Shown here one piece after another: positions 17,160 to 50,522 of a DNA stretch of 64,000 bases. A program made the translations under genes and the position numbers. Every line of letters begins with the position of its first letter. Position 1 is the stretch's first letter. The notes under the pieces are model-generated. The model made no database searches and was not told the origin of the DNA. It saw only the letters and a program-made list of their open reading frames with translations. The DNA is from Escherichia coli (lineage in GTDB: Bacteria > Pseudomonadota > Gammaproteobacteria > Enterobacterales > Enterobacteriaceae), in the NCBI RefSeq assembly GCF_036507355.1, contig NZ_AP027877.1; one strand, given 5' to 3'.

Positions 17160-19051
<1,892 letters not shown>

Positions 19052-19065
19052 CTCCGGGAACGCTC

Positions 19066-19734: not shown

Positions 19735-20483
19735 GTGCCATTGAAGTTAAGAACCTGGTGAAAAAATTCCACGGTCAGACGGTGCTGCACGGTATCGACC
19801 TTGAGGTAAAGCCTGGCGAAGTGGTGGCAATTATCGGTCCGAGTGGTTCCGGCAAAACCACGTTGCTACGCAGCATAAATCTGCTGGAACAACCCGAAGC
19901 GGGAACGATCACCGTTGGCGATATCACTATTGATACTGCACGTTCATTAAGTCAGCAAAAATCGCTGATTCGCCAGTTGCGTCAGCACGTCGGGTTTGTC
20001 TTCCAGAACTTTAATTTGTTTCCGCATCGTACGGTGCTGGAGAACATTATTGAAGGGCCGGTGATCGTCAAAGGCGAACCAAAAGAAGAGGCTACGGCGC
20101 GCGCTCGCGAGCTACTGGCAAAAGTTGGGCTGGCCGGTAAAGAAACCAGCTATCCACGTCGTTTGTCTGGCGGTCAACAGCAGCGTGTTGCGATTGCGCG
20201 TGCGCTGGCAATGCGTCCTGAGGTGATTTTGTTTGACGAGCCAACGTCAGCGCTGGATCCAGAGCTGGTGGGCGAAGTCCTGAACACCATCCGTCAGCTG
20301 GCGCAGGAAAAGCGCACGATGGTGATTGTGACACACGAAATGAGCTTTGCCCGGGATGTTGCGGACCGGGCGATCTTTATGGACCAGGGGCGGATAGTCG
20401 AGCAGGGGGCCGCAAAAGCGTTATTTGCCGATCCCAAGCAGCCTCGCACCCGCCAGTTCCTCGAGAAGTTTCTGCTGCAATAA
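19731..20483 (+). CDS. tcyN: Cystine ABC transporter ATP-binding protein TcyN (YecC)
   Basis: Walker A GPSGSGKTT, signature LSGGQQQR, Walker B ILFDEPTSALD; 4-nt overlap with tcyL. Confidence 0.92.
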   Translation: MSAIEVKNLVKKFHGQTVLHGIDLEVKPGEVVAIIGPSGSGKTTLLRSINLLEQPEAGTITVGDITIDTARSLSQQKSLIRQLRQHVGFVFQNFNLFPHRTVLENIIEGPVIVKGEPKEEATARARELLAKVGLAGKETSYPRRLSGGQQQRVAIARALAMRPEVILFDEPTSALDPELVGEVLNTIRQLAQEKRTMVIVTHEMSFARDVADRAIFMDQGRIVEQGAAKALFADPKQPRTRQFLEKFLLQ

Positions 20484-20712
20484 TAAGAAAAAATCAGCCC
20501 CGACGATTCACCTGTCGGGGCGGGACGCCATTTCAAGCCTGATAAAACTGCTTAACAAATCAGCATAACTCATTAATAACATAAGAGAATGCGATGGCTT
20601 GCAAAAGTAATTCATTGCCTGAATAATATAAATTATATATAAATCTTATTTATGTGATAGTTTGAATTATCATTATAAATGATACTCACTCTCAGGGGCG
20701 TTGCGGTTTACT

Positions 20713-21435
20713 ATGCAGGATACGGATTTTTTCAGCTGGCGTCGCACGATGCTGTTGCGTTTTCAGAGGATGGAGACCGCAGAAGAGGTCTACCATGAAA
20801 TTGAGCTTCAGGCTCAGCAGCTGGAGTACGATTACTATTCGTTATGTGTCCGCCACCCGGTACCATTCACTCGACCTAAAGTGGCTTTCTACACCAATTA
20901 CCCTGAGGCGTGGGTTAGTTATTATCAGGCAAAAAACTTTCTCGCAATTGATCCGGTGCTGAACCCTGAAAACTTTAGTCAGGGCCATCTAATGTGGAAT
21001 GATGACTTATTCAACGAAGCACAGCCGTTATGGGAAGCCGCGCGCGCACATGGTTTACGCCGCGGTGTCACTCAGTATTTAATGCTGCCAAACCGGGCGC
21101 TGGGCTTTTTGTCCTTTTCCCGTTGCAGCGCGCGCGAAATACCCATTCTTAGTGATGAACTGCAATTAAAAATGCAGTTACTGGTGCGCGAAAGTCTGAT
21201 GGCTCTGATGCGTTTAAATGATGAAATAGTGATGACGCCAGAGATGAATTTCAGCAAGCGCGAAAAAGAAATTCTGAGGTGGACGGCGGAAGGGAAGACA
21301 TCAGCAGAGATAGCGATGATTTTGTCAATCTCTGAGAATACGGTCAATTTCCACCAGAAAAACATGCAGAAAAAAATTAATGCACCAAATAAGACCCAGG
21401 TTGCCTGTTACGCGGCCGCTACTGGCTTAATTTGA
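20713..21435 (+). CDS. sdiA: LuxR-family quorum-sensing regulator SdiA
   Basis: Product begins MQDTDFFSWRRTMLLRFQ; C-terminal LuxR HTH. Confidence 0.9.
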   Translation: MQDTDFFSWRRTMLLRFQRMETAEEVYHEIELQAQQLEYDYYSLCVRHPVPFTRPKVAFYTNYPEAWVSYYQAKNFLAIDPVLNPENFSQGHLMWNDDLFNEAQPLWEAARAHGLRRGVTQYLMLPNRALGFLSFSRCSAREIPILSDELQLKMQLLVRESLMALMRLNDEIVMTPEMNFSKREKEILRWTAEGKTSAEIAMILSISENTVNFHQKNMQKKINAPNKTQVACYAAATGLI

Positions 21436-21463
21436 TCTCTTTTCTGTCCTGCGTGCCAGATGC

Positions 21464-21500
21464 AAAAACCGGCTGAAAGGCACGCTATCAGCCGGTTTTA
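21464..21500. terminator. Bidirectional terminator between convergent sdiA and yecF
   Basis: AAAAA-CCGGCTGA-loop-TCAGCCGG-TTTT hairpin flanked by A- and T-runs. Confidence 0.6.
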
Positions 21501-21502
21501 TA

Positions 21503-21727
21503 TTACTGACGGTAGGCTTGTTTAATTTGCTTAACCGTTTTGGAAAATACTGCAGCCTGGGTTTCGTCTTCGATCAGCGCAAGCTGTTTTTCCATCTTTA
21601 ACATCACGCGGCCCGCGTCAGCTTGTCCCATCGCCTGCAGCATCAGCGTCAGCATCGCTTTCAGGCAGGAGACTTCATTTGCCAGTTCTTGATTATTCTC
21701 GGCAGTAGAAAAATCAGGCGTACTCAT
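21503..21727 (-). CDS. yecF: Small protein YecF
   Basis: 74-aa ORF in the conserved position between sdiA and uvrY. Confidence 0.75.
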
Positions 21728-22185
21728 TTATTTTCCTCGTCATGTTGCAATGAAAATTTGCGGTGAAAAATGTTAAGGCGGCGGAGTATACCATAAGCTT
21801 TGCTAAAAATAGCAGTGGTTGTTTTTTGAGCGTGATATCGGCAGTGCTATAAAATACGTTAATATAATGACCAATAAATATTTTTATCATGAATGTTTTT
21901 TGCCCGTATTGTTCGGGTTAATTAATGTTACATATTCAGCGGGCTGATTTTCATTTTTGCTGAATAAAGTCAATTTTTGTCACATTTCATCGCAGGGCTT
22001 ACTGTGAAACGATCCCGGAAGCCGTTGGTGACGGGCGTGACCATAACTGTGGACAATCGAATTTACAAAAACGAGAGAAAAATCGAATACCCACCATTTT
22101 TAACGTTTCAAAGTTGCAATAAAAACCGCTAATATACGAATGACTAACTATCAGTAGCGTTATCCCTATTTCTGGAGATATTCCT

Positions 22186-22842
22186 TTGATCAACGTTCTA
22201 CTTGTTGATGACCACGAACTGGTGCGCGCAGGGATACGACGCATTCTGGAAGATATAAAGGGTATAAAAGTCGTCGGTGAGGCATCGTGCGGTGAAGACG
22301 CCGTTAAGTGGTGCCGGGCAAATGCCGTTGACGTGGTGCTAATGGACATGAGTATGCCGGGCATTGGCGGTCTTGAGGCGACGCGTAAAATCGCGCGTTC
22401 CACAGCTGATGTCAAAATCATCATGCTTACCGTCCATACAGAAAACCCTTTACCAGCGAAAGTCATGCAGGCCGGTGCTGCGGGCTACCTCAGCAAAGGC
22501 GCGGCACCGCAGGAAGTCGTGAGTGCGATCCGTTCTGTCTATTCAGGGCAGCGTTACATTGCTTCTGACATCGCTCAACAAATGGCGTTAAGCCAGATCG
22601 AACCAGAAAAAACAGAAAGCCCATTTGCCAGTTTGTCTGAACGTGAATTGCAGATTATGCTGATGATCACCAAGGGCCAGAAGGTCAATGAGATCTCAGA
22701 ACAGCTCAATCTCAGTCCGAAAACGGTGAACAGCTACCGCTATCGTATGTTCAGTAAACTAAACATTCATGGCGATGTTGAGCTGACTCACCTGGCAATT
22801 CGCCATGGTCTGTGTAATGCGGAGACATTATCAAGTCAGTGA
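22186..22842 (+). CDS. uvrY: Response regulator UvrY (BarA/UvrY two-component system), TTG start
   Basis: Receiver domain (LLVDDH...) plus LuxR-type HTH; stop overlaps the uvrC start. Confidence 0.92.
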
Positions 22843-24671
22843 GTGATCAGTTTGACGCAAAAGCGTTTTTAAAAACCGTAACCAGCCAGCCAGGCGTTTA
22901 TCGCATGTACGATGCTGGTGGTACGGTTATCTATGTCGGCAAAGCGAAAGACCTGAAAAAACGGCTTTCCAGCTATTTCCGTAGCAACCTCGCTTCGCGC
23001 AAAACCGAAGCGCTGGTCGCCCAGATCCAGCAAATTGATGTAACGGTTACTCATACAGAAACCGAAGCGCTGTTGCTGGAACACAACTACATCAAACTCT
23101 ATCAGCCGCGTTACAACGTTTTGCTACGCGATGATAAATCATATCCTTTTATCTTCCTGAGTGGCGATACCCACCCGCGTCTGGCGATGCATCGTGGTGC
23201 GAAGCATGCCAAAGGTGAATATTTCGGCCCGTTCCCGAATGGCTATGCCGTACGTGAAACACTGGCGCTACTGCAAAAGATTTTCCCCATTCGCCAGTGC
23301 GAAAATAGTGTTTATCGCAATCGCTCGCGTCCGTGTCTGCAATATCAGATAGGGCGCTGTCTGGGACCGTGCGTTGAAGGACTGGTGAGTGAAGAAGAAT
23401 ACGCTCAGCAGGTCGAGTATGTGCGCCTGTTTTTGTCTGGCAAAGATGATCAGGTGCTTACGCAACTGATTAGCCGTATGGAAACTGCCAGTCAGAATCT
23501 GGAGTTTGAAGAAGCGGCACGTATTCGCGACCAAATTCAGGCGGTGCGACGCGTCACCGAAAAACAGTTTGTGTCCAATACCGGCGACGACCTTGACGTT
23601 ATTGGTGTGGCGTTCGATGCGGGCATGGCTTGTGTCCACGTATTGTTCATTCGTCAGGGCAAAGTGCTCGGCAGCCGCAGCTATTTCCCGAAAGTGCCTG
23701 GCGGTACGGAACTGAACGAGGTGGTGGAAACCTTCGTAGGACAGTTCTATTTACAAGGCAGCCAGATGCGCACCTTACCGGGTGAGATCCTGCTCGATTT
23801 TAATCTTAGCGATAAAACGCTGCTCGCCGATTCCCTTTCAGAACTGGCGGGACGCAAGATTAATGTTCAAACCAAACCTCGTGGCGATAGGGCGCGTTAC
23901 CTGAAACTCGCGCGCACCAATGCGGCGACGGCCTTAACCAGCAAACTTTCGCAGCAATCTACCGTTCACCAGCGGCTTACAGCACTTGCCAGCGTGTTGA
24001 AATTGCCGGAAGTGAAGCGGATGGAGTGCTTTGACATCAGCCATACCATGGGTGAACAAACCGTCGCTTCCTGTGTGGTGTTTGATGCTAACGGCCCGCT
24101 GCGTGCGGAGTATCGGCGCTATAACATTACTGGCATCACGCCGGGCGATGATTATGCGGCGATGAATCAGGTGCTGCGTCGGCGTTATGGTAAAGCCATC
24201 GACGACAGTAAGATCCCGGATGTGATACTTATCGACGGCGGCAAAGGCCAGCTTGCGCAGGCGAAAAATGTCTTCGCCGAACTGGATGTCTCATGGGATA
24301 AAAATCATCCGCTGCTACTTGGCGTTGCCAAAGGAGCAGATCGTAAGGCTGGGCTGGAAACGCTGTTCTTTGAGCCGGAAGGTGAGGGATTCAGTTTGCC
24401 GCCAGATTCTCCCGCGCTGCATGTTATCCAGCATATTCGCGATGAATCACACGATCACGCGATTGGCGGGCACCGTAAAAAACGGGCGAAGGTCAAAAAT
24501 ACCAGTTCCCTGGAAACCATTGAAGGCGTCGGGCCAAAACGCCGGCAAATGTTGTTGAAATATATGGGCGGTTTGCAAGGTTTACGTAACGCCAGCGTCG
24601 AGGAAATTGCAAAAGTGCCGGGTATTTCGCAAGGTCTGGCAGAAAAGATCTTCTGGTCGTTGAAACATTGA
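22839..24671 (+). CDS. uvrC: Excinuclease ABC subunit C UvrC
   Basis: 610 aa with GIY-YIG N-terminus ([24 protein letters not shown]). Confidence 0.95.
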
Positions 24672-24727
24672 TGTCTCTGTAGCAACATAGGGGTAATCTT
24701 ACTGACAACAGATAGTTACCCGTCATT

Positions 24728-25276
24728 ATGCAATTTAATATCCCTACGTTGCTTACACTGTTCCGTGTCATCCTTATCCCATTCTTTGTATTGGTCTTTT
24801 ATCTGCCTGTCACCTGGTCGCCGTTTGCCGCCGCGCTCATTTTCTGCGTCGCGGCGGTGACTGACTGGTTCGATGGTTTTCTGGCACGCCGCTGGAACCA
24901 GAGTACCCGGTTTGGTGCTTTCCTTGACCCTGTAGCAGATAAAGTTCTCGTGGCTATCGCCATGGTGCTGGTAACCGAGCATTACCACAGCTGGTGGGTG
25001 ACCTTACCGGCGGCAACGATGATCGCCCGTGAAATTATTATTTCTGCGCTACGCGAATGGATGGCGGAGTTGGGTAAACGCAGTAGCGTGGCTGTCTCCT
25101 GGATTGGGAAAGTGAAAACCACTGCCCAGATGGTGGCGCTGGCATGGCTGCTGTGGCGTCCGAACATTTGGGTTGAGTACGCCGGTATTGCACTTTTCTT
25201 TGTGGCTGCGGTACTGACTCTGTGGTCAATGTTGCAATATTTGAGCGCTGCGCGTGCAGATTTGCTTGATCAGTGA
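24728..25276 (+). CDS. pgsA: CDP-diacylglycerol--glycerol-3-phosphate 3-phosphatidyltransferase PgsA
   Basis: 182-aa ORF recognised as PgsA. Confidence 0.92.
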
Positions 25277-25326
25277 TCGTTTCGGCGCAATTTTCAGCAA
25301 ACGATCAAAAGTGGTGAAAAATATCG

Positions 25327-25354
25327 TTGACTCATCGCGCCAGGTAAGTAGAAT
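25327..25354 (+). promoter_or_regulatory. Putative sigma-70 promoter of the glyW-cysT-leuZ tRNA operon
   Basis: TTGACT-N16-TAGAAT followed by a GC-rich discriminator, about 70 bp upstream of tRNA-Gly. Confidence 0.5.
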
Positions 25355-25427
25355 GCAACGCATCGAACGGCGGCACTGATTGCCAGACGATAATAAAATC
25401 AAGTGATTAACTGATTGCTTGATGAAT

Positions 25428-25643: not shown

Positions 25644-25730
25644 GCCCGGATGGTGGAATCGGTAGACACAAGGGATTTAAAATCCCTCGGCGTTCGCGCT
25701 GTGCGGGTTCAAGTCCCGCTCCGGGTACCA
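25644..25730 (+). tRNA. leuZ: tRNA-Leu (anticodon UAA), integration target of the island
   Basis: GCCCGGATGGTGGAATCGGTAGACACAAGGGATTTAAAATCCCTCGGCG...CCGGGTACCA, long variable arm. Confidence 0.95.
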
Positions 25731-25805
25731 TGGGAAACATCAGAATAATCAAAGCAATAAGCAGTGTCGTGAAACCACCTTCGGGTGGTTTTTTTGTGCA
25801 TGCAA
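25675..25805 (+). repeat. Left direct repeat (attL): 3' half of tRNA-Leu plus downstream terminator
   Basis: About 131 bp repeated with a few mismatches and a 2-bp indel at 51890-52022. Confidence 0.85.
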
Positions 25806-28754: not shown

Positions 28755-29288
28755 ATGAGTAAATCAAAATTAGTTAAAAATAATGTTGAGTCAGTTTCGA
28801 AGGAGATTAAAAATGAGGCAGAGGTTATTCATGAAAATCTCAGTGCAGATGAACAAACATTATCTGATGTAAAAGACTATCAGTTGCTCATTGAAACAGG
28901 TCAGGCAGAAAAAATCAGTCCTAAGGCAAGTGGTATGCTGACATGGCAACTGGCGATATCAGAGGTGGACAATGAACTTTATCTTCGTCTGGTGGCAAAT
29001 GGCTGTGGAGGGTTGTTCTCTAAGGACTGGATCTCACTTTCAAAGATTGCATCTGTTCTGGAAACACAACCTGCTACCGGCTTCTCATCCGGAGTATTCA
29101 GGCCGCTATTCAAAGGGGCAAGCACCAACAATGCAGGTTTTCTGGCTGCAGTTTTACGCTCCCCGGATATATGTCTGCTGGAGGCACATCCAGAGAAGTT
29201 ATTTACTCATGTATTATACCCGGACTGGAGGGAGCGGTTGAATAAACTTAATACGATTAGTAGCCAGGAAAAGATTACAGAGGATTAA
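28755..29288 (+). CDS. Hypothetical protein (177 aa)
   Basis: ORF 26 bp after the previous gene; no family recognised. Confidence 0.5.
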   Translation: MSKSKLVKNNVESVSKEIKNEAEVIHENLSADEQTLSDVKDYQLLIETGQAEKISPKASGMLTWQLAISEVDNELYLRLVANGCGGLFSKDWISLSKIASVLETQPATGFSSGVFRPLFKGASTNNAGFLAAVLRSPDICLLEAHPEKLFTHVLYPDWRERLNKLNTISSQEKITED

Positions 29289-29360
29289 TTTATTTCCTGC
29301 ACTGTTATACAACCAGAAATCACCACACACCACTATTTACTTTCTAAAGGAAAATTTATT

Positions 29361-29795
29361 ATGCAAACCCAATATGCCTTAAAACAGGCAGGATTAACTC
29401 TGCCTGTTACTAAAGAATTTCAGCAGCATATTACTACGCTTCTGGCAAATCGGGTTTTACAAAAAATAACTGAGGCAGTGGTTATTAATTTCCGTGATCC
29501 GGACTACAGTGCAGAATCCGGCGGATTTCATCCGGTTGAAATGCGATTCATCCGTCAGGATAACGAATGGTATTTCGATTATGTCACAGACTTTAGTTAC
29601 ATGGGACGAGTCTACCCGGAACTGGAAAAAGAAATTGATTTTTGCTGGTCGGGGAATTATGTCTTCCATTATCTGGCTGGGGATATTTCACTGGCGGCAG
29701 AGAGGAATGAACTCTGGTCCTTATGGGAGGGTAATTTTATGGATTACCTGTCTATGGGGATTTACCGGGTAACGGTAACTGTGGAAAGTTGTTGA
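29361..29795 (+). CDS. Hypothetical protein (144 aa)
   Basis: ORF with plausible spacing; no family recognised. Confidence 0.5.
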   Translation: MQTQYALKQAGLTLPVTKEFQQHITTLLANRVLQKITEAVVINFRDPDYSAESGGFHPVEMRFIRQDNEWYFDYVTDFSYMGRVYPELEKEIDFCWSGNYVFHYLAGDISLAAERNELWSLWEGNFMDYLSMGIYRVTVTVESC

Positions 29796-30096
29796 CCCGT
29801 TATGAACAGGAAGAAAGCGGGCGGCTTTGTAATCTACTGCATGTGGCGTGCATCACAGCATGGAGATGATGTCTCTTTTTCCTGGCTGTTCGCATAAACA
29901 AGTGCAGACACGGGGGATCTCAGATCCCTCGTGATTTTTGCCCCCTATGGTGCATTCTCCAGTAGCAGGGTGATAACGGTTAATCCATTACCCCAACGAC
30001 AGTATTACACCGGTAATAAATGTTCATGAATACAGTTAGTTATGTGGGTTTTGAGGTGGGCTATGTCATCGTTGACGATAACTGAAGGTTTTACAG

Positions 30097-30324
30097 ATGT
30101 ATAAAACTCGCGGTGAAAGGATCGCAGAAAGGCTGTGCTGGATATTACTTCAACTGTATACCGGTAATACGGTATCGGTTAATGATATATGTCAGCGTTT
30201 CGCGGTCAGTCGCCGAACCGGACAGCGTGATTTGTTGAGAGTTGAAACTGTAACGGAAACTATTTCACCTGGAAGGGTAAGGCTGGCAAATTTGATAAGG
30301 GAACGAGTTAGACGAAATTTTTAA
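30097..30324 (+). CDS. Short HTH protein, possibly a remnant of a DeoR/WYL-type regulator
   Basis: VSVNDICQRFAVSRRTGQRDL resembles the N-terminal HTH of WYL/DeoR regulators; only 75 aa. Confidence 0.35.
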   Translation: MYKTRGERIAERLCWILLQLYTGNTVSVNDICQRFAVSRRTGQRDLLRVETVTETISPGRVRLANLIRERVRRNF

Positions 30325-30546
30325 TCGAATCCATATCAATTCTATAAAATATGAAAATTAACGGGAGTAAATATACACTCCCGTTATAATGCAACCTTTT
30401 TTTAACTACTCAAATGATATTAATTTAGGTGCGACAGTGTTTTTATGACATGTTAAATTCGCAAGATCAATAATATCATGAAACAATTTTAGGTAATGCT
30501 GCCAACTTACTGATTTAGTGTATGATGGTGATTTTAAGGTGCTTGC

Positions 30547-30822
30547 GTGGCTTCCATTTCCATCAGATGTCCTTCCTGCTACGCTACTGAAGGCGTGGTG
30601 CGTAACGGCAAAAGCACTGCCGGACATCAGCGCTATCTCTGCTCTCATTACCGTAAAACATGGCAACTACAGTTCACTTACACCGCCTCTCAGCCCGGTA
30701 CGCACCAGAAAATCATTGATATGGCCATGAATGGCGTCGGATGTCGCGCCAGTGCACGCATTATGGGCGTTGGCCTCAACACGGTTTTACGTCACTTAAA
30801 AAACTCAGGCCGCAGTCGGTAA
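30547..30822 (+). CDS. insA: IS1 InsA
   Basis: [40 protein letters not shown]... Confidence 0.92.
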
Positions 30823-30848
30823 CCTAGCGCATACAACCGGGCGGTGAT

Positions 30849-31244
30849 GTGATTGTCTGCGCTGAAATGGACGAACAGCGGGGTTACGTCGGCGCTAAAT
30901 CACGCCAGCGCTGGTTGTTTTACGCGTATGACAGGATTCGGAGGACGGTTGTGGCGCACGTATTCGGTGAACGCACTCTGGCCACACTGGAGCGTCTTCT
31001 GAGCCTGCTGTCGGCCTTTGAGGTCGTGGTATGGATGACGGATGGCTGGCCGCTGTATGAATCCCGCCTGAAGGGAAAGCTGCACGTTATCAGCAAGCGT
31101 TACACTCAGCGCATTGAGCGACATAATCTGAATCTGAGACAACATCTGGCAAGGCTGGGACGGAAGTCACTGTCGTTCTCAAAATCGGTGGAGCTGCATG
31201 ACAAGGTCATCGGGCATTATCTGAACATAAAACACTATCAGTAA
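30849..31244 (+). CDS. insB: IS1 InsB (transposase part; InsAB' made by frameshift)
   Basis: ...[47 protein letters not shown]... Confidence 0.9.
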
Positions 31245-31435
31245 GTTGGAGTCATTACCTGTTTTTGCTGCATATTTGGCCATGCACTTTTGCCATCAAG
31301 TCAGAGAGACAGGGGCACCGTAAGAGACGAAGGTTGCTGCCTGTGATGAGAGGTTATCAGCAATTACAATGGTCACTAATATTTACATAATGTCGGAGAA
31401 CATCATTTTAGTTGAAATAATATAAAGGCGGTTCT

Positions 31436-31762
31436 ATGTATTTACATATCAGAAAGTATCAACTCGTAAATGCGAGATGGCGTGATATCATTGATTTGAC
31501 GGATTATGAAGAAACAATCAAGCAGGTTGTGAGTACATTATTTGGAAATGATTTTATTGAGGTCAGAGTTGAAACGCGTTGTTTTATTCTGACAGTAAAC
31601 AGTACAAGCAGTAAAATACCACACGGCATACTGGTGAATATGGGGAAAAGGCTGGCGGCGAATCTCCAGAGTATCACCTGTCATGCCATGCGGATCTATC
31701 ATGTAAATGGCCATCCTGACGCGCGGCAGTTATTTCACTGTTTTGATGCCGATTGCCTGTGA
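31436..31762 (+). CDS. Hypothetical protein (108 aa)
   Basis: ORF between IS1 and the convergent polymerase gene; no family recognised. Confidence 0.4.
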   Translation: MYLHIRKYQLVNARWRDIIDLTDYEETIKQVVSTLFGNDFIEVRVETRCFILTVNSTSSKIPHGILVNMGKRLAANLQSITCHAMRIYHVNGHPDARQLFHCFDADCL

Positions 31763-31810
31763 TTAAGCCCCCAACTTCTGTTAAAGGAGTTGGGGGAGAT
31801 TTAACGGTTA

Positions 31811-34474
31811 TCAGACTGGAAGACAGAATGTCGGATATTTACGGGCTATGATATCCATCAGTGACTTCATTCGCGGTGTTACAGAACTAAATTTCATTTG
31901 GGGTATTTTTGCTCTTACCGCATTTTTTACATCAGTCACCGTTACTGAATAGCCTTCTGACGTCAGCCATTCAGCAACCTCTTTACAGGAATAACTTTTT
32001 TTATCTTTCAGCATCAGCCCCCATTGGCACTGAGTCAGCGCCCGGAGAAATAGTCTGACTAAAATATCATCACTACGTTTGCTTCCGACTTTTAGTTTCA
32101 TATCAGAAAACACCGTCCGGCAATAGAGAAAATCACACCAGTCATCCCAGTCAGCCAGGGTCTTCAGTGTATGCGTTTGCCGCCAGTCGTCGAAAAGGGA
32201 GCGTTGCTGCAGAGCCTCTTCCATATTATCCCACGGGCGGGAAAACATCAGTAGATGCCCTTCATTCATGGCGGGCCGTACGGGCTGGCGTTTGAAATCG
32301 AATTCCAGATTAAGACGGATATCCTGTTCCCGGGATACCAGATCGCTTTCCGAGAGCCACATCTCACGCGTTGATATCAACGTACTTCGGGATAACGTCT
32401 GACCGGGTAAACGATTAAGGTAAAGATCTACCATATAGTCGTTATAGTCACTGCGTGGAATATCGGCAGGAGGTTTGACGCCAGCCCTGGCATGAACAAC
32501 AGGTTTTCCCTGAATCGCTTTATAGGTTAACTGCCCCCGGGTTTTCATGGCGATAAGCTGGCTGACCTCATGCTTACATGTCAACATTGATGAACCCGGA
32601 TCAACAATATCGCACAGCGACTGGAAGCGGGAAGACAGTGGACCGCTCATGTTTATCTTGTCAAGTGGGCAATTTGTCAAAAAACCATCGGTTGTGACGC
32701 TGACAACCGATGAATCAGAAGGCAAAGCATTCATGAGTTCCCCGACAACGGCGCGGATAAATCCCGTCACATGCGCAGCAAAGAATGGCTGAGTAACCGA
32801 TGATGGTGGGAGGGATCTGTTTAATCCACGGGCAGTATCAAAGGCGGTTTTGGCGCGAAGGCCCTGAGCAAGTTTGCCATAAAGCGAGTTGCCAATTTCT
32901 TTCCAGAATTTCTCCTCCAAAGAACCCTTAATATGGCGATTACGGTTCTCACGGACCTGTTGAACAAAGGGAAGAAACACCGATGTTGATTCGCTGTTAT
33001 GTGGGGAGGTGTCACAGATCCAGGGGACGATGATCCCATTATGGATCGTCATCTCTGCCCCGAGCGACAGAGCAAGTTCGATTTCAGGTGCCGTTGCCCA
33101 TGATTCGCCACTTAATGGAAAGAATAACCCATATTGATCGGTCCGAACCGGCAGGCTGGGATAGGGAACTGATTCCGGGAACCGAAATGTGACAAGCGCA
33201 AATCCCATCACATGCCCACAGTAATCGTCCGGATTTTTACTGAGGCGGATGTTTCCGTAATCGGGTATGAGGATATCTAATAGCCCGGTGGTATACGCTC
33301 CAGCCAGATCGTAGTCATACCAGTGATCAGACGGTGTAACCCCCATCATAAAACACTCATTGCGTCCGCCGTGGTAACAGTTGATCGGGAACGTTTCAAA
33401 CAACTCTCTTGAAGGAACACTGGCGGGGTTTTTAATCGTCCGGAATGCCTGTTTCTCCGTGAGCCAGAGTTCACGGGTTTTAATGTGTGTCCCAAGGCAG
33501 ACTTCAGGAGACATATTGTTTTCTTTAAGTGTTTTGGTGAACCGTGAAACTGCCATCGCCCCGATGGTGGCGGGGACACGATCAATCATCAGCTCCCGGG
33601 CGCAAAAATTGCGAACCTGTAAAGCATAACGAACCGCAATCTCGGCATCCCGCAGAGCATAGGCTTCAAACCCTGCTCTGTCGCCCAGAAGATATTCACG
33701 CATATTGGTTATGGAATAAGGTGCAGGAATGGTGAGTTTGGGAAGACCCAGTAATTCACCACATTCAGCCAGACCCATACCCCCGGGAGTGATAAGCAGT
33801 GTATCGATGAAAGCTACGTTACTGCAACGCGGAGGGGAAGTTCGTTTGTCAAACATTATCTGTTCAGTCTTTACGCGACGTTCCTGCTGTTCATCAAAAT
33901 CGATACCGTAACGATTTTTGAAGCTGCTGACAGTACCGCGTATTCCTTTCAGAAGAATTTTGTAGTCTGACCAGAAATTGGCAAAGGAGGCGATATCCGC
34001 ACGAATGAAATGCGCATATATATTAATAATACCGGGCCATTTTGTAATCACACCCGTTTCAAGAAGCGGTGTAATCGTTTGACAGAGAAATTCCTTAAAA
34101 GACAGTCGGGATTTTTTCTGTGAGTCAGGTGGATAGATAATGTTCGATATACCAGTGTTATCGGGTAAGACGACATAACTCTGATATGACAGAATATCAT
34201 TCTGTTGTGTTTCAGGATTGAAAACATATTCGGTATCAAAACCGATATGGAGTGTCAGGTCACTTGAAATAACAGATACTTTTTTTGATGCAGGTGGTAT
34301 CACAGGATAATCATCAAGCGTTTTAGGTCTTTTAAGATTGAGCGCTGGCTCTGAAGTCACGGACTGATACCCCGAGGCGGCAGCGAGGATATCCTGCAAA
34401 TTATGGCTCATAGTTAACTCCGAAAAAATGCCGGGAGCTGTGTCCCGGCATAAAGAATCAAGATTTAATAACAT
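31811..34474 (-). CDS. Family-B DNA polymerase of the primer-independent PolB (piPolB) type
   Basis: Exo I FDTEY, motif B KEIGNSLYG (KxxxNSxYG), motif C-like VTTDG, and KTRG in AMKTRGQLTY in place of the KxY motif; 887 aa. Confidence 0.85.
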   Translation of the reverse strand: MLLNLDSLCRDTAPGIFSELTMSHNLQDILAAASGYQSVTSEPALNLKRPKTLDDYPVIPPASKKVSVISSDLTLHIGFDTEYVFNPETQQNDILSYQSYVVLPDNTGISNIIYPPDSQKKSRLSFKEFLCQTITPLLETGVITKWPGIINIYAHFIRADIASFANFWSDYKILLKGIRGTVSSFKNRYGIDFDEQQERRVKTEQIMFDKRTSPPRCSNVAFIDTLLITPGGMGLAECGELLGLPKLTIPAPYSITNMREYLLGDRAGFEAYALRDAEIAVRYALQVRNFCARELMIDRVPATIGAMAVSRFTKTLKENNMSPEVCLGTHIKTRELWLTEKQAFRTIKNPASVPSRELFETFPINCYHGGRNECFMMGVTPSDHWYDYDLAGAYTTGLLDILIPDYGNIRLSKNPDDYCGHVMGFALVTFRFPESVPYPSLPVRTDQYGLFFPLSGESWATAPEIELALSLGAEMTIHNGIIVPWICDTSPHNSESTSVFLPFVQQVRENRNRHIKGSLEEKFWKEIGNSLYGKLAQGLRAKTAFDTARGLNRSLPPSSVTQPFFAAHVTGFIRAVVGELMNALPSDSSVVSVTTDGFLTNCPLDKINMSGPLSSRFQSLCDIVDPGSSMLTCKHEVSQLIAMKTRGQLTYKAIQGKPVVHARAGVKPPADIPRSDYNDYMVDLYLNRLPGQTLSRSTLISTREMWLSESDLVSREQDIRLNLEFDFKRQPVRPAMNEGHLLMFSRPWDNMEEALQQRSLFDDWRQTHTLKTLADWDDWCDFLYCRTVFSDMKLKVGSKRSDDILVRLFLRALTQCQWGLMLKDKKSYSCKEVAEWLTSEGYSVTVTDVKNAVRAKIPQMKFSSVTPRMKSLMDIIARKYPTFCLPV

Positions 34475-35096
34475 TTACTACAGATTTGAAAATATCGGTT
34501 TTGCGTGATTCATCATCTACATGGATAAAGGAAACGAGTTTCCTGCCTGCTTTAATCAGGATACCGCGTTGCGTCTTTTCCACAGACGGGGTAACGTGTG
34601 CAGATAACAGACAATGTTCATGTAAATGAAGAAACTTTTTTGAGGCGTAGCCGCCATGTAATCGGGCTTGAATGTCAAGATACATATCATCAAGAGAACC
34701 GGGTTCTCCTGATTCACTCAATACCGGATAACCCTTCTTATCAAAGAGGTTAAGGATAGATTTACTATCATGTTCGAACAGGGTAACACCGTAAATGTAT
34801 TTCATTCGAAAGGTGAGGGAATCGGTGGTGTAGACCTCCTCCTGACGATTGAAATTTTTGAGACGCCTGGCTAATTCATTAAAAACAGCACGAGCAGTAG
34901 CCGTGTCCTGCAGGGTGTAGGTATAAAGTACGAAGCCATCTGTGCCGATGAGCTTTACTAAGTTGTCCATAATCGTGATAGCGAGAACTAATGCAAAGGA
35001 TAGATATTTTTCATCGTTGTCTACAGCTGTGTTTGCTGCTTCAGGAAGAATGTTCAGTGCATTATTAGCATTATTTGCTGTGTTCTTAGTAACCAT
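34458..35096 (-). CDS. Hypothetical protein (212 aa) co-transcribed upstream of the polymerase
   Basis: Overlaps the polymerase start by 17 nt and the AlpA-like gene stop by 11 nt. Confidence 0.55.
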   Translation of the reverse strand: MVTKNTANNANNALNILPEAANTAVDNDEKYLSFALVLAITIMDNLVKLIGTDGFVLYTYTLQDTATARAVFNELARRLKNFNRQEEVYTTDSLTFRMKYIYGVTLFEHDSKSILNLFDKKGYPVLSESGEPGSLDDMYLDIQARLHGGYASKKFLHLHEHCLLSAHVTPSVEKTQRGILIKAGRKLVSFIHVDDESRKTDIFKSVVNVIKS

Positions 35097-35286
35097 TTAT
35101 ATCACCTTTAAGTTTGTTTTGACGATGTGCATTTTCCCACTCAACAATATCATCAAGAGAGAATCGTATAGCCCGCCCAATTCTGATGAAGGGCGGGAGT
35201 TTTCCGGGGTTGCGCGATATATCTGACGCAACCGTGGATGCAGAAAGATTAAATCTTTCTGCGAACTGCTTAATGGTTAAATACAT
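35086..35286 (-). CDS. AlpA-family phage-type regulator / excisionase-like HTH protein
   Basis: 66 aa, MYLTIKQFAERFNLSASTVASDISRNPGKLPPFIRIGRAIRFSLDDIVEW, typical AlpA/Xis HTH_17. Confidence 0.75.
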   Translation of the reverse strand: MYLTIKQFAERFNLSASTVASDISRNPGKLPPFIRIGRAIRFSLDDIVEWENAHRQNKLKGDINGY

Positions 35287-35436
35287 AAACCTCCGGTTTC
35301 AGAGAATAAGAAGCCACGCGGATTTAATATCAATCCACATTCTGTGATGACTTAATGCAGGGCCCTGCAGAAGCATGCAATGACAATACCGTCCTTAAAC
35401 GAGTGTTGCATCAATCACGAATCACAGATCATAGGT

Positions 35437-36564
35437 TCATTTTGTGTCATAACTTTCTATGACCTGAGAAACCACTGCGTGTGATGTCGCTGCATTGTGA
35501 AAAGCGTAGCGACGGGTCGCCGTGAGTGAATGGTGATTTAGCAGATGGGAAGCGATTGCAATATCCCCGGTCGCCTGTAGTACCCGGGTGGCAAAGGTAC
35601 GGCGCAGGTCATGCATCCGCAGGTTATCAATGTTGGCATCCCGACAAATACGGGCAAAGGTTGCACGCGGATATGCCAGAGGGCGGGCATTGTCGGTTAG
35701 TTGTGGAAAAATGTAAGTTTTGCTGAGCATCAGGTCCTGCTGGCACTGGACAACTGCAATGGCTGGAAGTGCAAGTGGGCAGGTGAAAGGGTGTCCGGAC
35801 TTTGTATCAGGCAGTATGAGTTGATGCATATCCGGGTGCCAGTACTCCCATTTCAGGGTACATACCTCACCAATACGCATCCCCGTATAAAGAGCAAGCA
35901 ATATAGAATCAGCTGCCGGTGTTTGCAGCGCTGTTGCTGCGTTAATAAAGCGCGGGATTTCTGTCGCTGACAGTGTGCGATAGCGAATGTTATTTTCTTT
36001 CAGATAGCGGACATGTGACATCGGGGAATGTGTGATCCATCCAGCACGTACTGCCAGAGAGCATATTTTGGACAATATTGCGAGGATACGGTTTACTGTT
36101 GACGGACGTAATTTTTCCCGTAAGCCAGCAGCATATTGTTCTAGTTCTCCTGCCGTGATGTCGCGAAGTTGCCGCTTGCCCCAGAACGGGCGAACGTAGA
36201 GGTTGAGTTTTGACAACTCTGACTGAGGACTCTTTTTATACAACTGCAAATCCGGTAGCCACAGGTCATTGATGGCCTGTTCCACAGTGAATCGACGGGA
36301 CTGAACAGCAAGGCGATTTTTATCGGCAAGCAGGTTCATCACATGCTGACGGGCATCCTCAATGCAGAGATGAGGGAATTCACCCAGTGTTTCATATATA
36401 CGTTGATTTTTGATGGTGGCGCGAAAGGCCAGCGTGATCCGTTTTGGATATACCAGTGCACGCAGGTTTTGGCACTGAATATCACGGTATTCCTGACAAC
36501 CCGTGAGGGGATGTGGAAGTTGGTGAATTGATTTGTTGCTGAAACGCAGATCCAGAATAGGCAT
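35437..36564 (-). CDS. Second tyrosine recombinase / integrase
   Basis: Catalytic HDLRRTFATRV (HxxR) and TRRYAF (Tyr), plus core-binding-like N-terminal region. Confidence 0.85.
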   Translation of the reverse strand: MPILDLRFSNKSIHQLPHPLTGCQEYRDIQCQNLRALVYPKRITLAFRATIKNQRIYETLGEFPHLCIEDARQHVMNLLADKNRLAVQSRRFTVEQAINDLWLPDLQLYKKSPQSELSKLNLYVRPFWGKRQLRDITAGELEQYAAGLREKLRPSTVNRILAILSKICSLAVRAGWITHSPMSHVRYLKENNIRYRTLSATEIPRFINAATALQTPAADSILLALYTGMRIGEVCTLKWEYWHPDMHQLILPDTKSGHPFTCPLALPAIAVVQCQQDLMLSKTYIFPQLTDNARPLAYPRATFARICRDANIDNLRMHDLRRTFATRVLQATGDIAIASHLLNHHSLTATRRYAFHNAATSHAVVSQVIESYDTK

Positions 36565-36706
36565 CGTATTTCTCCTGTAAATGACACTGGAAAAATACGA
36601 TGTGAGGTTATAGTCTGCCAGTTACAGCTTTCACAGTTCATCAGGTGAAAAATGCTGATTCGGATATAATGGCAACACAATTCCATGTCGCCATTATATT
36701 AAGAAA

Positions 36707-37837
36707 CTACAGTTTCATGATCTTGTTCGCTATTTTTTCGAAGTAAACCTCATTCTTAAGAAGAGTGATATTGTTAGTTTGAACACCCAGACCACTGGAG
36801 GTTGACTGGAAGTTGAGTGAACCACTTATCACGGTGGACTTTCCTGATAAAAATGAAATCAACTCCTTGGAAGATGGTGCCCACTCAGGGTTTAAGAGTA
36901 ATGCAATGTAGATATATGTCTTACGAAGCAATTGTTCGATATCTTTTTTATACCCCGTAGTGTTTTGCTTACCTTTAATGCAAATTGATTTGATTATGAA
37001 CTCATCAGGGCTGGTTAAAGGCGTTTTAAACTTATTCAGTGATCCATCGTTATGAATGACTTCATAAGGCAGCATAGATAAAATGATCAATGCAATCATT
37101 TTAGGATGATAAAGGTAGTTATCACGAATGATTTTTCCTGCCTTCATTGTATTGAGTGTTGTTTGAATAAATACAAAAAGATATTCAGAGCAAAAGTAAC
37201 AAAACACAAGCCAGGATAGGTCAATGGCTGGAATGTTAATATCCTTAGGTAGTTTGTTTAGCCAGTATTCAGACTTCAAAAAGGTCCTGATTTCAACAGT
37301 ATATTCATGCATTTTTGCGCTGAAATCAAGCATTGCTACTTGACCTGATTGTTCCGTAACTGTGTGGTCTATAAATGTTAGTGTATTGCACATTTTATCC
37401 AGCGTGTTTTGAAAACAAGAAAGGAGTTCGGCATTATTATTACCATTAACCGCAGATGAAAGTTCAGTTGCAATAAATGCATCCAGTAGCATACAGATTT
37501 TTTTCGGAATGACATTTTTACGGGATTGCTGTGAATAGAAATATACTGCCAGTAAATTAAAGGCAGTGCACTCCTTTTTTAACCATTGTTCGAGCACTGG
37601 GACGTGCTGAAAAAAATTGATATGCTTAGCAGTAGATGCTGATGGAGATAGTACATGAAGAATATCTACAGCAGGCTTCATTTGCAATATTTGATCGGAT
37701 TCGGTAGTCGTCATTAGTTCCAGTAATTGCTGTTCAGAAAATAGTTTAGACAGGTGATCAATGTCTTTTTGGTATTGGTTAAGTTTTTTTAAATTCCCCG
37801 GTACACGGGTTACATTGTTTTTCATTTTCTCGAACAT
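36707..37837 (-). CDS. Hypothetical protein (376 aa), AT-rich orphan
   Basis: Long ORF in visibly AT-rich DNA; no motif recognised. Confidence 0.55.
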   Translation of the reverse strand: MFEKMKNNVTRVPGNLKKLNQYQKDIDHLSKLFSEQQLLELMTTTESDQILQMKPAVDILHVLSPSASTAKHINFFQHVPVLEQWLKKECTAFNLLAVYFYSQQSRKNVIPKKICMLLDAFIATELSSAVNGNNNAELLSCFQNTLDKMCNTLTFIDHTVTEQSGQVAMLDFSAKMHEYTVEIRTFLKSEYWLNKLPKDINIPAIDLSWLVFCYFCSEYLFVFIQTTLNTMKAGKIIRDNYLYHPKMIALIILSMLPYEVIHNDGSLNKFKTPLTSPDEFIIKSICIKGKQNTTGYKKDIEQLLRKTYIYIALLLNPEWAPSSKELISFLSGKSTVISGSLNFQSTSSGLGVQTNNITLLKNEVYFEKIANKIMKL

Positions 37838-38239
37838 AATTTTATCCTCGTTTGAATTAATACACTGATTTAAAAAGTAGCATGTCGTGTTAGCGAGGTA
37901 ATCCTAAAACGTGAATGGGATCAGGGGCAAGCTTGAATCTGCGTAAGGATATGGCTTAAATTTAATGGTGTAATTAGTGGATTAGAGGCTTATAGCTATT
38001 TAAATACAATAAGTTATGACGGTGTGTGGCGGGTGTAAATCGGTTAGTTTTTATGGTTAAAATATGAGCGCTATGAGGTTTCAGAGATGGTGGTGTTTAA
38101 ATTACATAAAACCAAGGCCTGATAATCAGTATCAATACCGGAACGATGTCATATGATTAACACTGTCTATGGCATTGATAATGATCTATGCAAGGCTGAA
38201 ATTAGCTCTGCTTCACGATGATATAGTGTTCTATAAAGA

Positions 38240-39475
38240 TTAAAAGGAAATAAACAGAGCCTTTCGCCGATGAATCAATGTGCTGATTTCCCTCAAATCA
38301 GCCTCAATACTACCAACATCACCAAAGACTTCACCTCTAATCTCACTTCGATTTTTCATGAAATTGGTGCTTAATAAGCTTTCTTTTTTTAATGCCATTA
38401 ATTTTGGTTTTATATCGTTATAGAAATGCTTACGGCTTACCCTGATGCTATGAATCGAGTAGTAAACTGTTTTATACATCAAAAATATAAGTAACTGGCC
38501 GAGAAGATATTCTTTTTCAATGTATTTATATTGAGAGGATTTTTCGCGTTTCGCCAGGTAGAAAACATGAGGTGCGATGATGGTGGGGATAAAATCCAGT
38601 GCTGGAGAGGTTTTGGTTTTTTCTGTTTCTCTTCCGGATTGAAGATGTTGAAGTACAGAGTATACAATGCTTAAAATTATGGCGTTACTTATATTATTAA
38701 TTGCAGTTGGGTAAATATGCAGATTGCTTATCAATTCTGAAAGGCAAAGTAAAACACCAGTGATGTTGGGTTTTCTGCCGGAGATTGTGGTGCTGTTGAA
38801 AATGTGACGATTCTTACGACTTATATTGACAAGTTTATGAGTGCAGAACTCTATATGTTCGACGATTTTATCTTGACTATTTTTAATGTATTTTGAAATG
38901 TTAGTGATCCGGCCATTCAACGTTAGTTCATCAAGCAATATATCATTTTTAATATTGCGAATTTCATCGCAATGTTCACATTGAGAAACTATCTCATGTA
39001 ATACATAACTCGAAGTATTGCGTGACGATGCTGATATGTAATCTAAAATGGAATGCTCGACTTTGATTTTTTGTTTGTATTTTTTAATGCACTGTTTGAT
39101 TGTTTTTTGTAGAGTATTTGAGATGTGTTTTTTATATTCTTTTAGAAAATCTTGCTCTAAAAAGAGTGAGGAGAAGATCAACTGCTGGCGAGATAATTTA
39201 ATCTCAGGCTTGATCAATTTAATCCGAAAAACTCTTCCCTCCAACTCATAGCTGAACATGGAAGATAAGTCATAGTGGGGTGATAAATGTTCGAGTAACG
39301 ACATTCGTGTATTCATTAGCCGCTTGAATTTATGGTCAGCATACATAAGTGTTTTTTTTATTTGCTCATCATAAAGTGGGCCGATAGCGCAGTTGGCAAT
39401 ACTCATTCTATCCGGAGACCTCCAGTCAGCAGGGGAATCACATTGACGGTCATCATTACTATCAAAGGGCATCAA
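38240..39475 (-). CDS. Hypothetical protein (411 aa), AT-rich orphan
   Basis: Long ORF in visibly AT-rich DNA; no motif recognised. Confidence 0.55.
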   Translation of the reverse strand: MMPFDSNDDRQCDSPADWRSPDRMSIANCAIGPLYDEQIKKTLMYADHKFKRLMNTRMSLLEHLSPHYDLSSMFSYELEGRVFRIKLIKPEIKLSRQQLIFSSLFLEQDFLKEYKKHISNTLQKTIKQCIKKYKQKIKVEHSILDYISASSRNTSSYVLHEIVSQCEHCDEIRNIKNDILLDELTLNGRITNISKYIKNSQDKIVEHIEFCTHKLVNISRKNRHIFNSTTISGRKPNITGVLLCLSELISNLHIYPTAINNISNAIILSIVYSVLQHLQSGRETEKTKTSPALDFIPTIIAPHVFYLAKREKSSQYKYIEKEYLLGQLLIFLMYKTVYYSIHSIRVSRKHFYNDIKPKLMALKKESLLSTNFMKNRSEIRGEVFGDVGSIEADLREISTLIHRRKALFISF

Positions 39476-39778: not shown

Positions 39779-41302
39779 ATGAACGACAAAATCAGTCAGG
39801 ACACGATCAACAAAGCCCTGTGGGCCGCGTGTGATACGTTCCGTGGCACCATCAGTGCTGATACCTATAAAGACTTTATCCTTACCATGCTGTTCCTCAA
39901 GTACATTTCAGATGTCTGGCAGGATCACTACGACGAATATAAAGTGCAATATGGCGATGCGCCGGAACTGATTGAAGCGATGATGGCGAACGAGCGCTTC
40001 GTGTTGCCGAAAAGCGCCAGTTTCTATGCGTTGTACGAGCGACGTCATGAGCCGGGCAACGGTGAGCGTATCGATCAGGCGCTGCATGCGATTGAAGAAG
40101 CCAACGGCACCAAACTGAAAGATGCCGGGAAAAGTGTCTTCCAGGATATTTCGTTTAACACTGACCGTCTGGGCGAAGAAAAACAGAAGAACACCATCCT
40201 GCGTCAGTTGCTGGAAGACTTTGCCGGTGAAGATCTTAACCTGAAGCCAAGCCGTGTCGGTACGCTGGACGTTATCGGTAATGCTTACGAATATCTGATC
40301 AAAAACTTTGCTGCCAGCGGTGGGCAGAAAGCCGGGGAATTCTATACCCCGCCGGAAGTTTCGGACCTGATTGCTGAACTGCTCGATCCGCAACCGGGTG
40401 ATACCATCTGCGATCCGGCCTGTGGTTCGGGTTCATTGTTGATGAAGTGTGGGCGTAAAATTGTCTCCGGGCATGATAGTCGTAACTATGCATTGTTCGG
40501 TCAGGAAGCGATCGGTTCTACGTGGTCGCTGGCGAAAATGAATATGTTCCTGCACGGGGAAGACAACCATAAAATCGAGTGGGGCGATACCATTCGTAAC
40601 CCGAAGCTGCTCGATAAAAATGGCGACCTGATGCTGTTTGATATCGTGACCGCTAACCCACCGTTCAGCCTCGATAAGTGGGGCCATGACGAGGCCGAGA
40701 ACGATAAGTTTGGCCGTTTTCGTCGCGGTGTACCGCCGAAGACTAAAGGAGATTACGCTTTTATCTCGCATATGATCGAAACCCTGAAACCGGGAACTGG
40801 CCGTATGGGCGTAGTTGTGCCACACGGTGTGCTTTTCCGTGGCTCCAGCGAAGGTAAAATTCGCCAGAAACTGATCGACGAAAATTTGCTGGATGCGGTA
40901 ATTGGTCTGCCGGAAAAACTGTTCTACGGTACGGGGATTCCGGCTGCGATTCTGATTTTTAAAAAGCAGAAAGTTGATGACAAGGTGCTGTTTATCGATG
41001 CCAGCCGTGAATTCAAGGCAGGTAAAAACCAGAACCAGCTTAGCGAAGAAAACATTAAGAAAATCGTCAAGACCTACCGTGATGGCGATAACGTCGAGAA
41101 ATACGCCTATCTTGCCAGCCTGAAGGAAATTCAGGACAACGACTATAATCTCAATATCCCGCGCTATGTCGATACCTTTGAAGAAGAGGATGAGATTGAC
41201 CTGCTGGCGGTGCGAGCAGAACGCGAGCAACTGAAGGCGGAATTGGCGAAGCTGGAAACGGAGATGGCTGGATATTTGAAGGAGTTGGGTTATGGCTCGT
41301 GA
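39779..41302 (+). CDS. hsdM: Type I restriction-modification methyltransferase subunit HsdM
   Basis: N6-adenine MTase motifs (DPACGSGS, TANPPFS), 507 aa. Confidence 0.92.
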   Translation: MNDKISQDTINKALWAACDTFRGTISADTYKDFILTMLFLKYISDVWQDHYDEYKVQYGDAPELIEAMMANERFVLPKSASFYALYERRHEPGNGERIDQALHAIEEANGTKLKDAGKSVFQDISFNTDRLGEEKQKNTILRQLLEDFAGEDLNLKPSRVGTLDVIGNAYEYLIKNFAASGGQKAGEFYTPPEVSDLIAELLDPQPGDTICDPACGSGSLLMKCGRKIVSGHDSRNYALFGQEAIGSTWSLAKMNMFLHGEDNHKIEWGDTIRNPKLLDKNGDLMLFDIVTANPPFSLDKWGHDEAENDKFGRFRRGVPPKTKGDYAFISHMIETLKPGTGRMGVVVPHGVLFRGSSEGKIRQKLIDENLLDAVIGLPEKLFYGTGIPAAILIFKKQKVDDKVLFIDASREFKAGKNQNQLSEENIKKIVKTYRDGDNVEKYAYLASLKEIQDNDYNLNIPRYVDTFEEEDEIDLLAVRAEREQLKAELAKLETEMAGYLKELGYGS

Positions 41303-43246: not shown

Positions 43247-43295
43247 TGAATCTTCATGTGACCAGTAGCGAGTAGCGCCAGAAAGAAAAGGATTA

Positions 43296-47335: not shown

Positions 47336-47393
47336 CTTATCAATATGAGTTCTTAAGGGTTTGGTCAGTCTCGTTAATGTAGGGAGTATAATA

Positions 47394-49232: not shown

Positions 49233-49290
49233 CAAAGTTAGGGTGTTAATTAATCTGTAATGGCATCATGATTTTTAAAAGGAGGTTGAA

Positions 49291-50418: not shown

Positions 50419-50522
50419 AGTAATATGACTGAGTGATGACGATCTTTTTTAAATTGTGGATTATTAGGCTGGTAATTGAAGCGCCGAATAGACAGATATT
50501 GGAATAAAAGGAGAATATTCAA

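Follow-up and report, generated by a model that had tools for sequence, protein, structure and literature searches.

InsAB', the transposase of IS1, is produced by a −1 frameshift at an A6C motif and prefers to act in cis, and IS1 favours AT-rich targets. Adjacent deletions promoted by this element have been known since the 1970s, and the classical cases in the gal region are said to have been described by Reif and Saedler in 1975. The serial extension of IS-adjacent deletions and the loss of the target duplication are documented in E. coli long-term lines, and in the Lenski lines the deletions next to IS150 "increased in size over time" (PMC11708052).

Pipolins of E. coli that are integrated at tRNA-Leu carry attachment repeats, two integrases, a DUF2787 gene, the polymerase gene piPolB and defence cargo (PMC7385651, PMC11551731). 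In gammaproteobacterial pipolins, a WYL-domain gene is counted as a core gene beside DUF2787 and piPolB (PMC11551731). Insertion sequences have already been noted in some E. coli pipolins, for example in strain L37 (PMC7385651).

The IS1 described here lies in a 64,000-nucleotide stretch of E. coli DNA, referred to as the window. The locus resembles the IS1 deletions of the gal region and the IS150 deletions of the Lenski lines in that one IS end is fixed, the losses are nested, the duplication is gone and the IS is kept. Unlike the IS150 series, it was reconstructed from natural isolates, and its dependence on transposase is deduced. The IS family, the missing duplication and the explanation by adjacent deletion are all already known, and the event is of a textbook kind. 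As an IS without target duplication beside a deletion in a natural isolate, the locus is of descriptive value. Three points are of note: a widespread lineage has lost a core regulator, IS1 has been active repeatedly at this place, and an IS1 sublineage with an amber stop exists at several loci.

The pipolin and its IS1 element

The island spans 26 kb and is bounded by direct repeats at both ends, with tRNA-Leu(taa) at the left (Table 1). The two attachment repeats bracket the IS1, which therefore lies inside the pipolin. The gene set comprises two tyrosine integrases, a DUF2787 gene, an 887-codon piPolB ORF and restriction-type nucleases, and thus shows the combination that marks pipolins, namely piPolB between direct repeats at a tRNA gene together with tyrosine integrases and DUF2787. 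The cargo arm (39779-51704) encodes a type I restriction-modification system, an M48 peptidase, a GmrSD-type nuclease, a PD-(D/E)XK nuclease and an Mrr-like endonuclease. Such a cargo agrees with the description of pipolins as defence islands. The window shares attachment repeats, both integrases, DUF2787, piPolB and defence cargo with the described E. coli pipolins, and differs from them (PMC7385651, PMC11551731) in lacking the WYL-domain core gene and a DUF726 gene, owing to the IS1-associated deletion. Of 17 ORFs of the window that were scanned, a set that excludes the ORFs at 39779-47335, none contained a WYL domain. The gene is present in the IS1-free pipolin of strain CT02 (L004) at 3287-4189.

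Table 1. Features of the pipolin and of the IS1 locus (window coordinates)
Feature	Position	Strand	Basis or remark
Left pipolin attachment repeat	25675-25805	+	overlaps 3' end of tRNA-Leu(taa)
Small stand-alone HTH gene, 75 aa, intact, conserved	30097-30324	+	strain G4/9 annotation "DeoR family transcriptional regulator"
Terminator-like hairpin between convergent small HTH and DUF726 genes, retained	30359-30386	.	L004 2360-2387
DUF726 hydrolase-like gene remnant, last 86 bp (stop and ~27 codons)	30406-30491	-	
IS1, 768 bp, full-length, transposase-defective	30492-31259	+	sequence, Pfam
IRL, left terminal inverted repeat; end point of all three nested deletions	30492-30514	+	
insA, 91 aa, open; Ser12Tyr (30581 C>A), zinc-ribbon Cys35Tyr (30650 G>A)	30547-30822	+	
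A6C programmed −1 frameshift motif	30798-30804	+	sequence
Amber stop TAG (from TCG, Ser in sister copies), insB' frame	30825-30827	+	
Putative gene-conversion patch, nine substitutions matching "internal stop" IS1 sublineage	30826-30962	+	
Rest of insB' frame	30828-31244	+	DDE_Tnp_IS1 domain, 244 bits
IRR, right terminal inverted repeat; junction with TGTTTTTGC common to ~108 complete E. coli genomes	31237-31259	+	
Kept 176 bp of former divergent WYL-regulator/orf108 intergenic region	31260-31435	.	
orf108, conserved pipolin hypothetical gene, downstream of IS1	31436-31762	+	
piPolB, primer-independent family-B DNA polymerase, intact	31811-34474	-	relatives' annotation "DNA polymerase type-B family protein"
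Right pipolin attachment repeat	51890-52022	+	

In size and termini, the element conforms to the IS1 family (~768 bp, ~23-bp imperfect repeats starting with GGTRATG). Its left end reads GGTAATGCTGCCAACTTACTGAT and its right end ...ATCAGTAAGTTGGAGTCATTACC, and the terminal repeats agree at 20 of 23 positions. Like known IS1 elements, it contains insA and insB' frames and an A6C −1 frameshift site. The frames encode the InsA zinc ribbon and HTH (Zn_ribbon_InsA PF03811, 65 bits; HTH_Tnp_IS1 PF12759, 103 bits) and the IS1-type DDE domain of InsB' (DDE_Tnp_IS1 PF03400). It is unlike known IS1 in carrying an amber stop in the InsAB' frame and a Cys to Tyr exchange in the zinc ribbon, and in lacking a 9-bp target duplication. 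The flanks are ACAATTTTA on the left (30483-30491) and TGTTTTTGC on the right (31260-31268), in agreement with the original prediction of exact ends and differing flanks. No target-site duplication of 8-11 bp was found around the element, even when shifted positions were considered; the family normally leaves 9 bp (8-11 bp). An adjacent deletion would account for its absence.

The element is 98.6% identical to its sister copy, which occupies the corresponding place in the pipolin of strain PK5074 (L001), and widespread E. coli copies labelled "IS1 family transposase" show the same 98.6% identity to it. In comparison with the IS1A/IS1B copies in L006 and L007, 71-72 positions differ (~90.7% identity). 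The window holds no second IS1 copy, and most E. coli are multi-copy, with IS1 at a median of 11 places per genome. In strain HKUOPY1, from a giant panda, the pipolin copy is the sole match to this IS1, found at one place in the record. Thus, the element travels with the pipolin, and a resident IS1 population is not required as its source.

DNA and genes missing beside the left end of IS1

The region 29000-32800 was used as a query against 5,426 complete E. coli genomes, 125 of which hold at least 80% of it, including the IS1. About 60 of the ~125 IS1-bearing loci were inspected row by row. The IS1 occupies the same position in all of the best 60 of the 125 genomes, and nearly all of these span 308 bp more than the window. 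In L001, the extra 308 bp lie directly left of IRL and hold, by alignment, a minus-strand 118-codon ORF. A further type found in two genomes (L002) has kept 34 of the 308 bp and lost 274 bp, with its breakpoint exactly at IRL. The IS1 of L001 is also without a duplication (GTGGCTCCG on the left, TGTTTTTGC on the right). Some IS1-bearing pipolins have an extra IS903B in the same interval and a span that is ~1.06 kb longer.

IS1-free alleles were sought with a query consisting of the two L001 flanks joined without IS1. At least 80% of this query is held by 236 genomes, many of them without IS1. Strain L37, whose pipolin carries the IS1 allele described here, was also among the matches to this query. 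In two IS1-free alleles, L004 and that of strain Z1323CEC0016 (L003), the L001 flanks are separated by 1,602 bp (L004 2801-4402). The alignment with IS1-less pipolins that the original prediction had proposed as a check was thereby carried out, and it shows that the window lacks 1,910 bp (L004 2493-4402), with the breakpoint at L004 2492. In total, there are three nested left breakpoints (1,602 bp; a further 308 bp in the window; a further 274 bp in L002), each abutting base 1 of IRL. The claim of an IS1-associated adjacent deletion or rearrangement, as opposed to a simple insertion, is borne out by the missing 1,910 bp and by the nesting of breakpoints at one IS1 end. A missed or degenerate duplication is ruled out, as the flanks lie 1,910 bp apart in IS1-free alleles, with unrelated DNA between them. 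The anatomy of the element, the missing DNA and the nested breakpoints leave hardly any room for doubt, and the same applies to the mosaic IS1 and the stop codon described below.

Junctions were counted with 60-mers in the 5,426 complete E. coli genomes, which yielded 108 right junctions and 102 primary left junctions. Queries of 300 bp and 60 bp for the window-type junction merge two half-matches between which L001-type genomes have 308 bp, and the number of window-type junctions is therefore given as an upper bound, the 108 right junctions minus the 102 primary left junctions. The window's exact left junction did not occur among the matches listed. The first deletion, with its junctions in ~100 genomes, is thus old and shared. 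The losses beyond the 1,602 bp are rare, later and independent.

The 1,602-bp segment of L004 contains the first 154 codons of the DUF726 gene, a 61-bp spacer, the gene of a 300-aa regulator and 213 bp of DNA upstream of it. In the window, the 1,910 bp lost correspond to most of the DUF726 gene, the complete regulator and the 213 bp. The DUF726 gene encodes an alpha-beta-hydrolase-like protein of 272 aa (L004 2407-3225; DUF726, 28 bits in Pfam). In L003, the closest IS1-free relative sampled (98.4%), the gene is annotated at 2407-2928 with 173 aa as against 272 aa, and it may be decaying independently of IS1.

The lost regulator consists of HTH_DeoR (33.8 bits), WYL (41.5 bits) and WCX (39.2 bits) domains, and matches the PADLOC WYL models with 76 bits. 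WYL transcriptional regulators of the BrxR/CapW type reportedly belong to defence islands, as attributed to Picton et al. (2022), a study cited in PMC11551731. The lost protein is like them in its order of HTH, WYL and WCX and in its match to the PADLOC WYL models. It is absent from the window, where its loss is the point of relevance. A PADLOC scan of the DUF726 protein, orf108 and DUF2787 gave no match to a defence system.

The regulator and orf108 were formerly divergent, and the deletion took the leftward 213 bp of their intergenic region, including two palindromes. These are located in L004 at 4329-4355 (ACATGTGGAC...GTCCATGTGT) and at 4366-4389 (TCAGGGTGATAATTATTATCCTGA), and would adjoin window position 31260 on the left. 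They are candidate operators and disappeared along with the regulator gene. For orf108, a promoter-like site (L004 4496-4524) is retained.

A widespread E. coli pipolin lineage, the window included, therefore lacks a WYL regulator that is treated as core in the literature, and is also without the hydrolase-like neighbour gene and the likely operator region. Since ~100 finished E. coli genomes and the window keep the island without WYL, the regulator is dispensable for the island to stay integrated. As material for identifying what the regulator controls, there are natural pipolins with and without the WYL gene whose remaining sequence is ~98% identical.

The small HTH gene left of the IS1 had been interpreted as a possible remnant of a lost regulator. 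This interpretation does not hold, as the ORF occurs in IS1-free pipolins and belongs to a conserved family of 75-78 aa. The left-flank DNA containing it is also found in L003 and L004 (~98.6-98.9% identical), and the ORF was therefore not created by the IS1 event. A database search returned 26 relatives; those with full cover measure 75-87 aa, mostly 75-78. Full-length homologues occur in E. coli and, at 73-77% identity, in Citrobacter, Enterobacter, Serratia and Scandinavium. An alignment of eight of the sequences, 75-78 aa in length, shows 43 invariant positions. In strain G4/9, the DNA over the gene is 73% identical and the protein length is kept. The match to HTH_11 is weak (21.4 bits, below the 25-bit cut-off in Pfam), and the ORF does not have the HTH, WYL and WCX domains and the ~230-320 aa of YafY/WYL-type regulators. 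Its identity to the N-terminus of the lost regulator is 27%. The regulator gene that did disappear is another one, encoded on the opposite strand on the right-hand side of the left breakpoint; the deletion took all of it, and nothing of it remains. The annotation is corrected accordingly, with the small HTH gene as a real conserved gene.

Other IS1 elements have entered the same neighbourhood. The IS1 of L005 (2340-3107) and that of L006 (1703-2470) have clean 9-bp duplications, TTGATATGG and TCTGCTGCC, respectively, and served as positive controls. Both are in opposite orientation and are situated within ~1.5 kb, in pipolins that are intact apart from these insertions, which lie inside the DUF2787 and DUF726 genes or between them. 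The short AT-rich stretch is a repeated IS1 target. Strain G4/9 (L007, NZ_CP060073.1) carries an IS1B (5418-6185) without duplication just after the small HTH gene. Its pipolin resumes at the equivalent of window position 38259, the gap corresponding to window ~30400-38258, and is without piPolB, orf108, the WYL gene, the DUF726 gene and one integrase. The chromosomal flank of G4/9 is 100% identical to window 19000-25400, and the pipolin is a different, IS1B-truncated allele. Altogether, at least six independent IS1 events have affected this stretch: the loss of 1,602 bp, its extensions by 308 bp and by 274 bp, two simple insertions, and the IS1B with loss of piPolB.

A mosaic IS1 with a closed transposase frame

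The element had originally been taken for an intact IS1, which does not apply to its coding capacity. From the A6C motif, the −1 frame reads KKLRPQSVT* and ends seven codons past the frameshift site, where the PK5074 copy reads on. The amber TAG lies beyond the insA stop codon (30820-30822) and therefore cannot be avoided by any frameshift. It prevents the InsAB' transposase from being made. The element is a defective member of its family, with the A6C motif present yet the open InsAB' fusion closed. Cys35Tyr affects the fourth zinc-ribbon cysteine of InsA (CSHCRKTW to CSHYRKTW). Neither this exchange nor Ser12Tyr was found in the other IS1 copies compared, and both are private to the window. 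InsB' contains the further changes Trp to Arg and Ser to Gly. PGAP (NCBI) annotates IS1 copies that share this stop as pseudogenes with "internal stop", and the annotation of the window IS1 is likewise corrected to a pseudogene. Unless transposase is given in trans, the element would be an immobile fossil.

The substitutions are unevenly distributed. The window differs from L001 at 11 positions in the 768-bp IS1 (1.4%) and at 12 positions in 6,900 bp of flanks (0.17%; Fisher p = 4e-6), with only one flank difference within ~1.4 kb on each side of IS1. Nine of the 11 IS1 differences, including the TAG, are confined to a 137-bp patch (30826-30962), and only those at 30581 and 30650 are private to the window. 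All nine patch bases are identical in L010 and L011, and eight of them in L008, L012 and L013, which differ at 30879. Resident L001-type sites are found on both sides of the patch, at 30509 and 30773 on the left and at 14 sites from 31015 to 31256 on the right. A foreign patch of 137-241 bp that is of resident type on both sides indicates gene conversion and not a single crossover, with a defective IS1 sublineage as the probable donor. Two other origins of the differences are ruled out: random decay, as nine of the 11 form a shared haplotype of "internal stop" copies, and IS1A/IS1B admixture, as eight of the 11 window bases do not occur in the IS1A/B-type copies used for comparison.

With 30800-30990 as the query, the tract was found 100% identical in strain ES4, both in the chromosome and in a small plasmid, and at 99.0-99.5% in strains H10407, EH10-18-47 and several other E. 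coli genomes. The best match in a plasmid collection searched for the tract donor was pCE35-5 (98.3%). Copies with the amber stop are located at unrelated loci, namely fdeC in the ES4 chromosome (L010), 4.1-kb plasmids (L011 and L008), and sites in H10407 (L012) and EH10-18-47 (L013). In L013, the element sits in a c-di-GMP phosphodiesterase gene and has a perfect 9-bp duplication (CATTTTGGT). Because amber-stop copies occur at several loci, one with a perfect duplication, it seems that transposase-dead IS1 has moved, presumably in trans, or that the stop-bearing tract spreads by gene conversion.

Proposed course of events

According to the proposed course, an IS1 entered the conserved core arm of a tRNA-Leu E. 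coli pipolin, most likely in the AT-rich divergent intergenic region at the right junction, IRR/TGTTTTTGC. We infer that this junction is the original one, as it is AT-rich and intergenic, IS1 favours AT-rich targets, and the later events all took place on the side of IRL. The IRL end would then have driven leftward deletions by intramolecular transposition, in which the end attacks a nearby site on the same molecule and the DNA between is lost. In a first step, 1,602 bp would have been removed (154 codons of DUF726, the whole HTH-WYL-WCX gene and 213 bp upstream), giving rise to the allele now seen in ~100 complete genomes. In a second step in the window lineage, another 308 bp would have been lost, leaving 86 bp of the DUF726 gene. 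With each such deletion, one of the two 9-bp repeats left by the insertion is lost, and the flanks would therefore no longer match. Separately, an IS1 tract of 137-241 bp would have been overwritten by gene conversion, which brought the amber stop into the InsAB' frame. Two private InsA missense changes, one in a zinc-ribbon Cys, may have followed. As the present copy cannot make InsAB', the 308-bp deletion would either predate the conversion or have used transposase in trans.

Three nested breakpoints fixed at the outermost base of IRL are the footprint of IS-promoted adjacent deletion. It is only this footprint that the sequence preserves, and transposase-mediated adjacent deletion is accordingly regarded as moderately probable. 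The main alternative, conceivable though rather unlikely, is RecA-dependent homologous recombination at each deletion step between the resident IS1 and a second IS1 of the same orientation further left, which would yield a chimeric IS1 bordered by the newcomer's flank on the left and by the resident's flank on the right. The window IS1 has evidently recombined with another IS1, and recombination between IS1 copies has thus operated here; foreign IS1 sequence is present inside it, the neighbourhood has been hit repeatedly (independent IS1 in L005, L006 and L007), and such recombination is a common cause of missing duplications (PMC11708052). However, the foreign patch is bounded by resident sequence on both sides, where a single crossover would give a left/right chimera. 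Moreover, the IS1 of L002 is free of the foreign tract (2 differences from L001) and yet has its own deletion, and three insertions in the same orientation would be needed, whereas those in L005 and L006 are opposite.

The absence of an intermediate allele, with IS1 and a 9-bp duplication beside an intact WYL gene, among the rows inspected would also fit a replacement of the 1,602 bp in one step, in which the IS1 was inserted or captured at a deletion or break and never had a duplication. Events of this "IS-del" kind are reported for IS5 and IS481 (PMC11708052). In the long-term lines, however, all 14 of 14 IS-deletion events consisted of an insertion followed by an adjacent deletion (PMC11708052), and the later extensions of 308 bp and 274 bp show the same IS1 end generating adjacent deletions, which makes a single step very improbable. 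An assembly artefact, with contigs mis-joined at a repeated IS1 and substitutions arising as consensus errors from collapsed copies, can be given almost no weight. It would be in line with the multi-copy nature of IS1 in most E. coli and with the absence of the window's exact left junction among the rows inspected. Against this, the right junction is identical in ~108 finished genomes, the left flank is collinear with the pipolin and ends exactly at base 1 of IRL, and finished genomes contain a comparable independent deletion (L002). In addition, nine of the 11 substitutions represent a real haplotype of other genomes and not random error.

Transposase-mediated adjacent deletion thus remains the preferred reading. 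Beyond it, a recurrent, selected erosion of the regulatory core of pipolins, combined with the spread of amber-stop IS1 as a non-autonomous parasite through trans-mobilisation and gene conversion, can be imagined but is improbable. If selection were involved, removal of the WYL repressor could favourably alter the expression of orf108, piPolB or the defence cargo. The WYL-minus allele, which is also without the candidate operators, occurs in ~100 genomes, the sources of which are diverse and include hosts as well as the environment.
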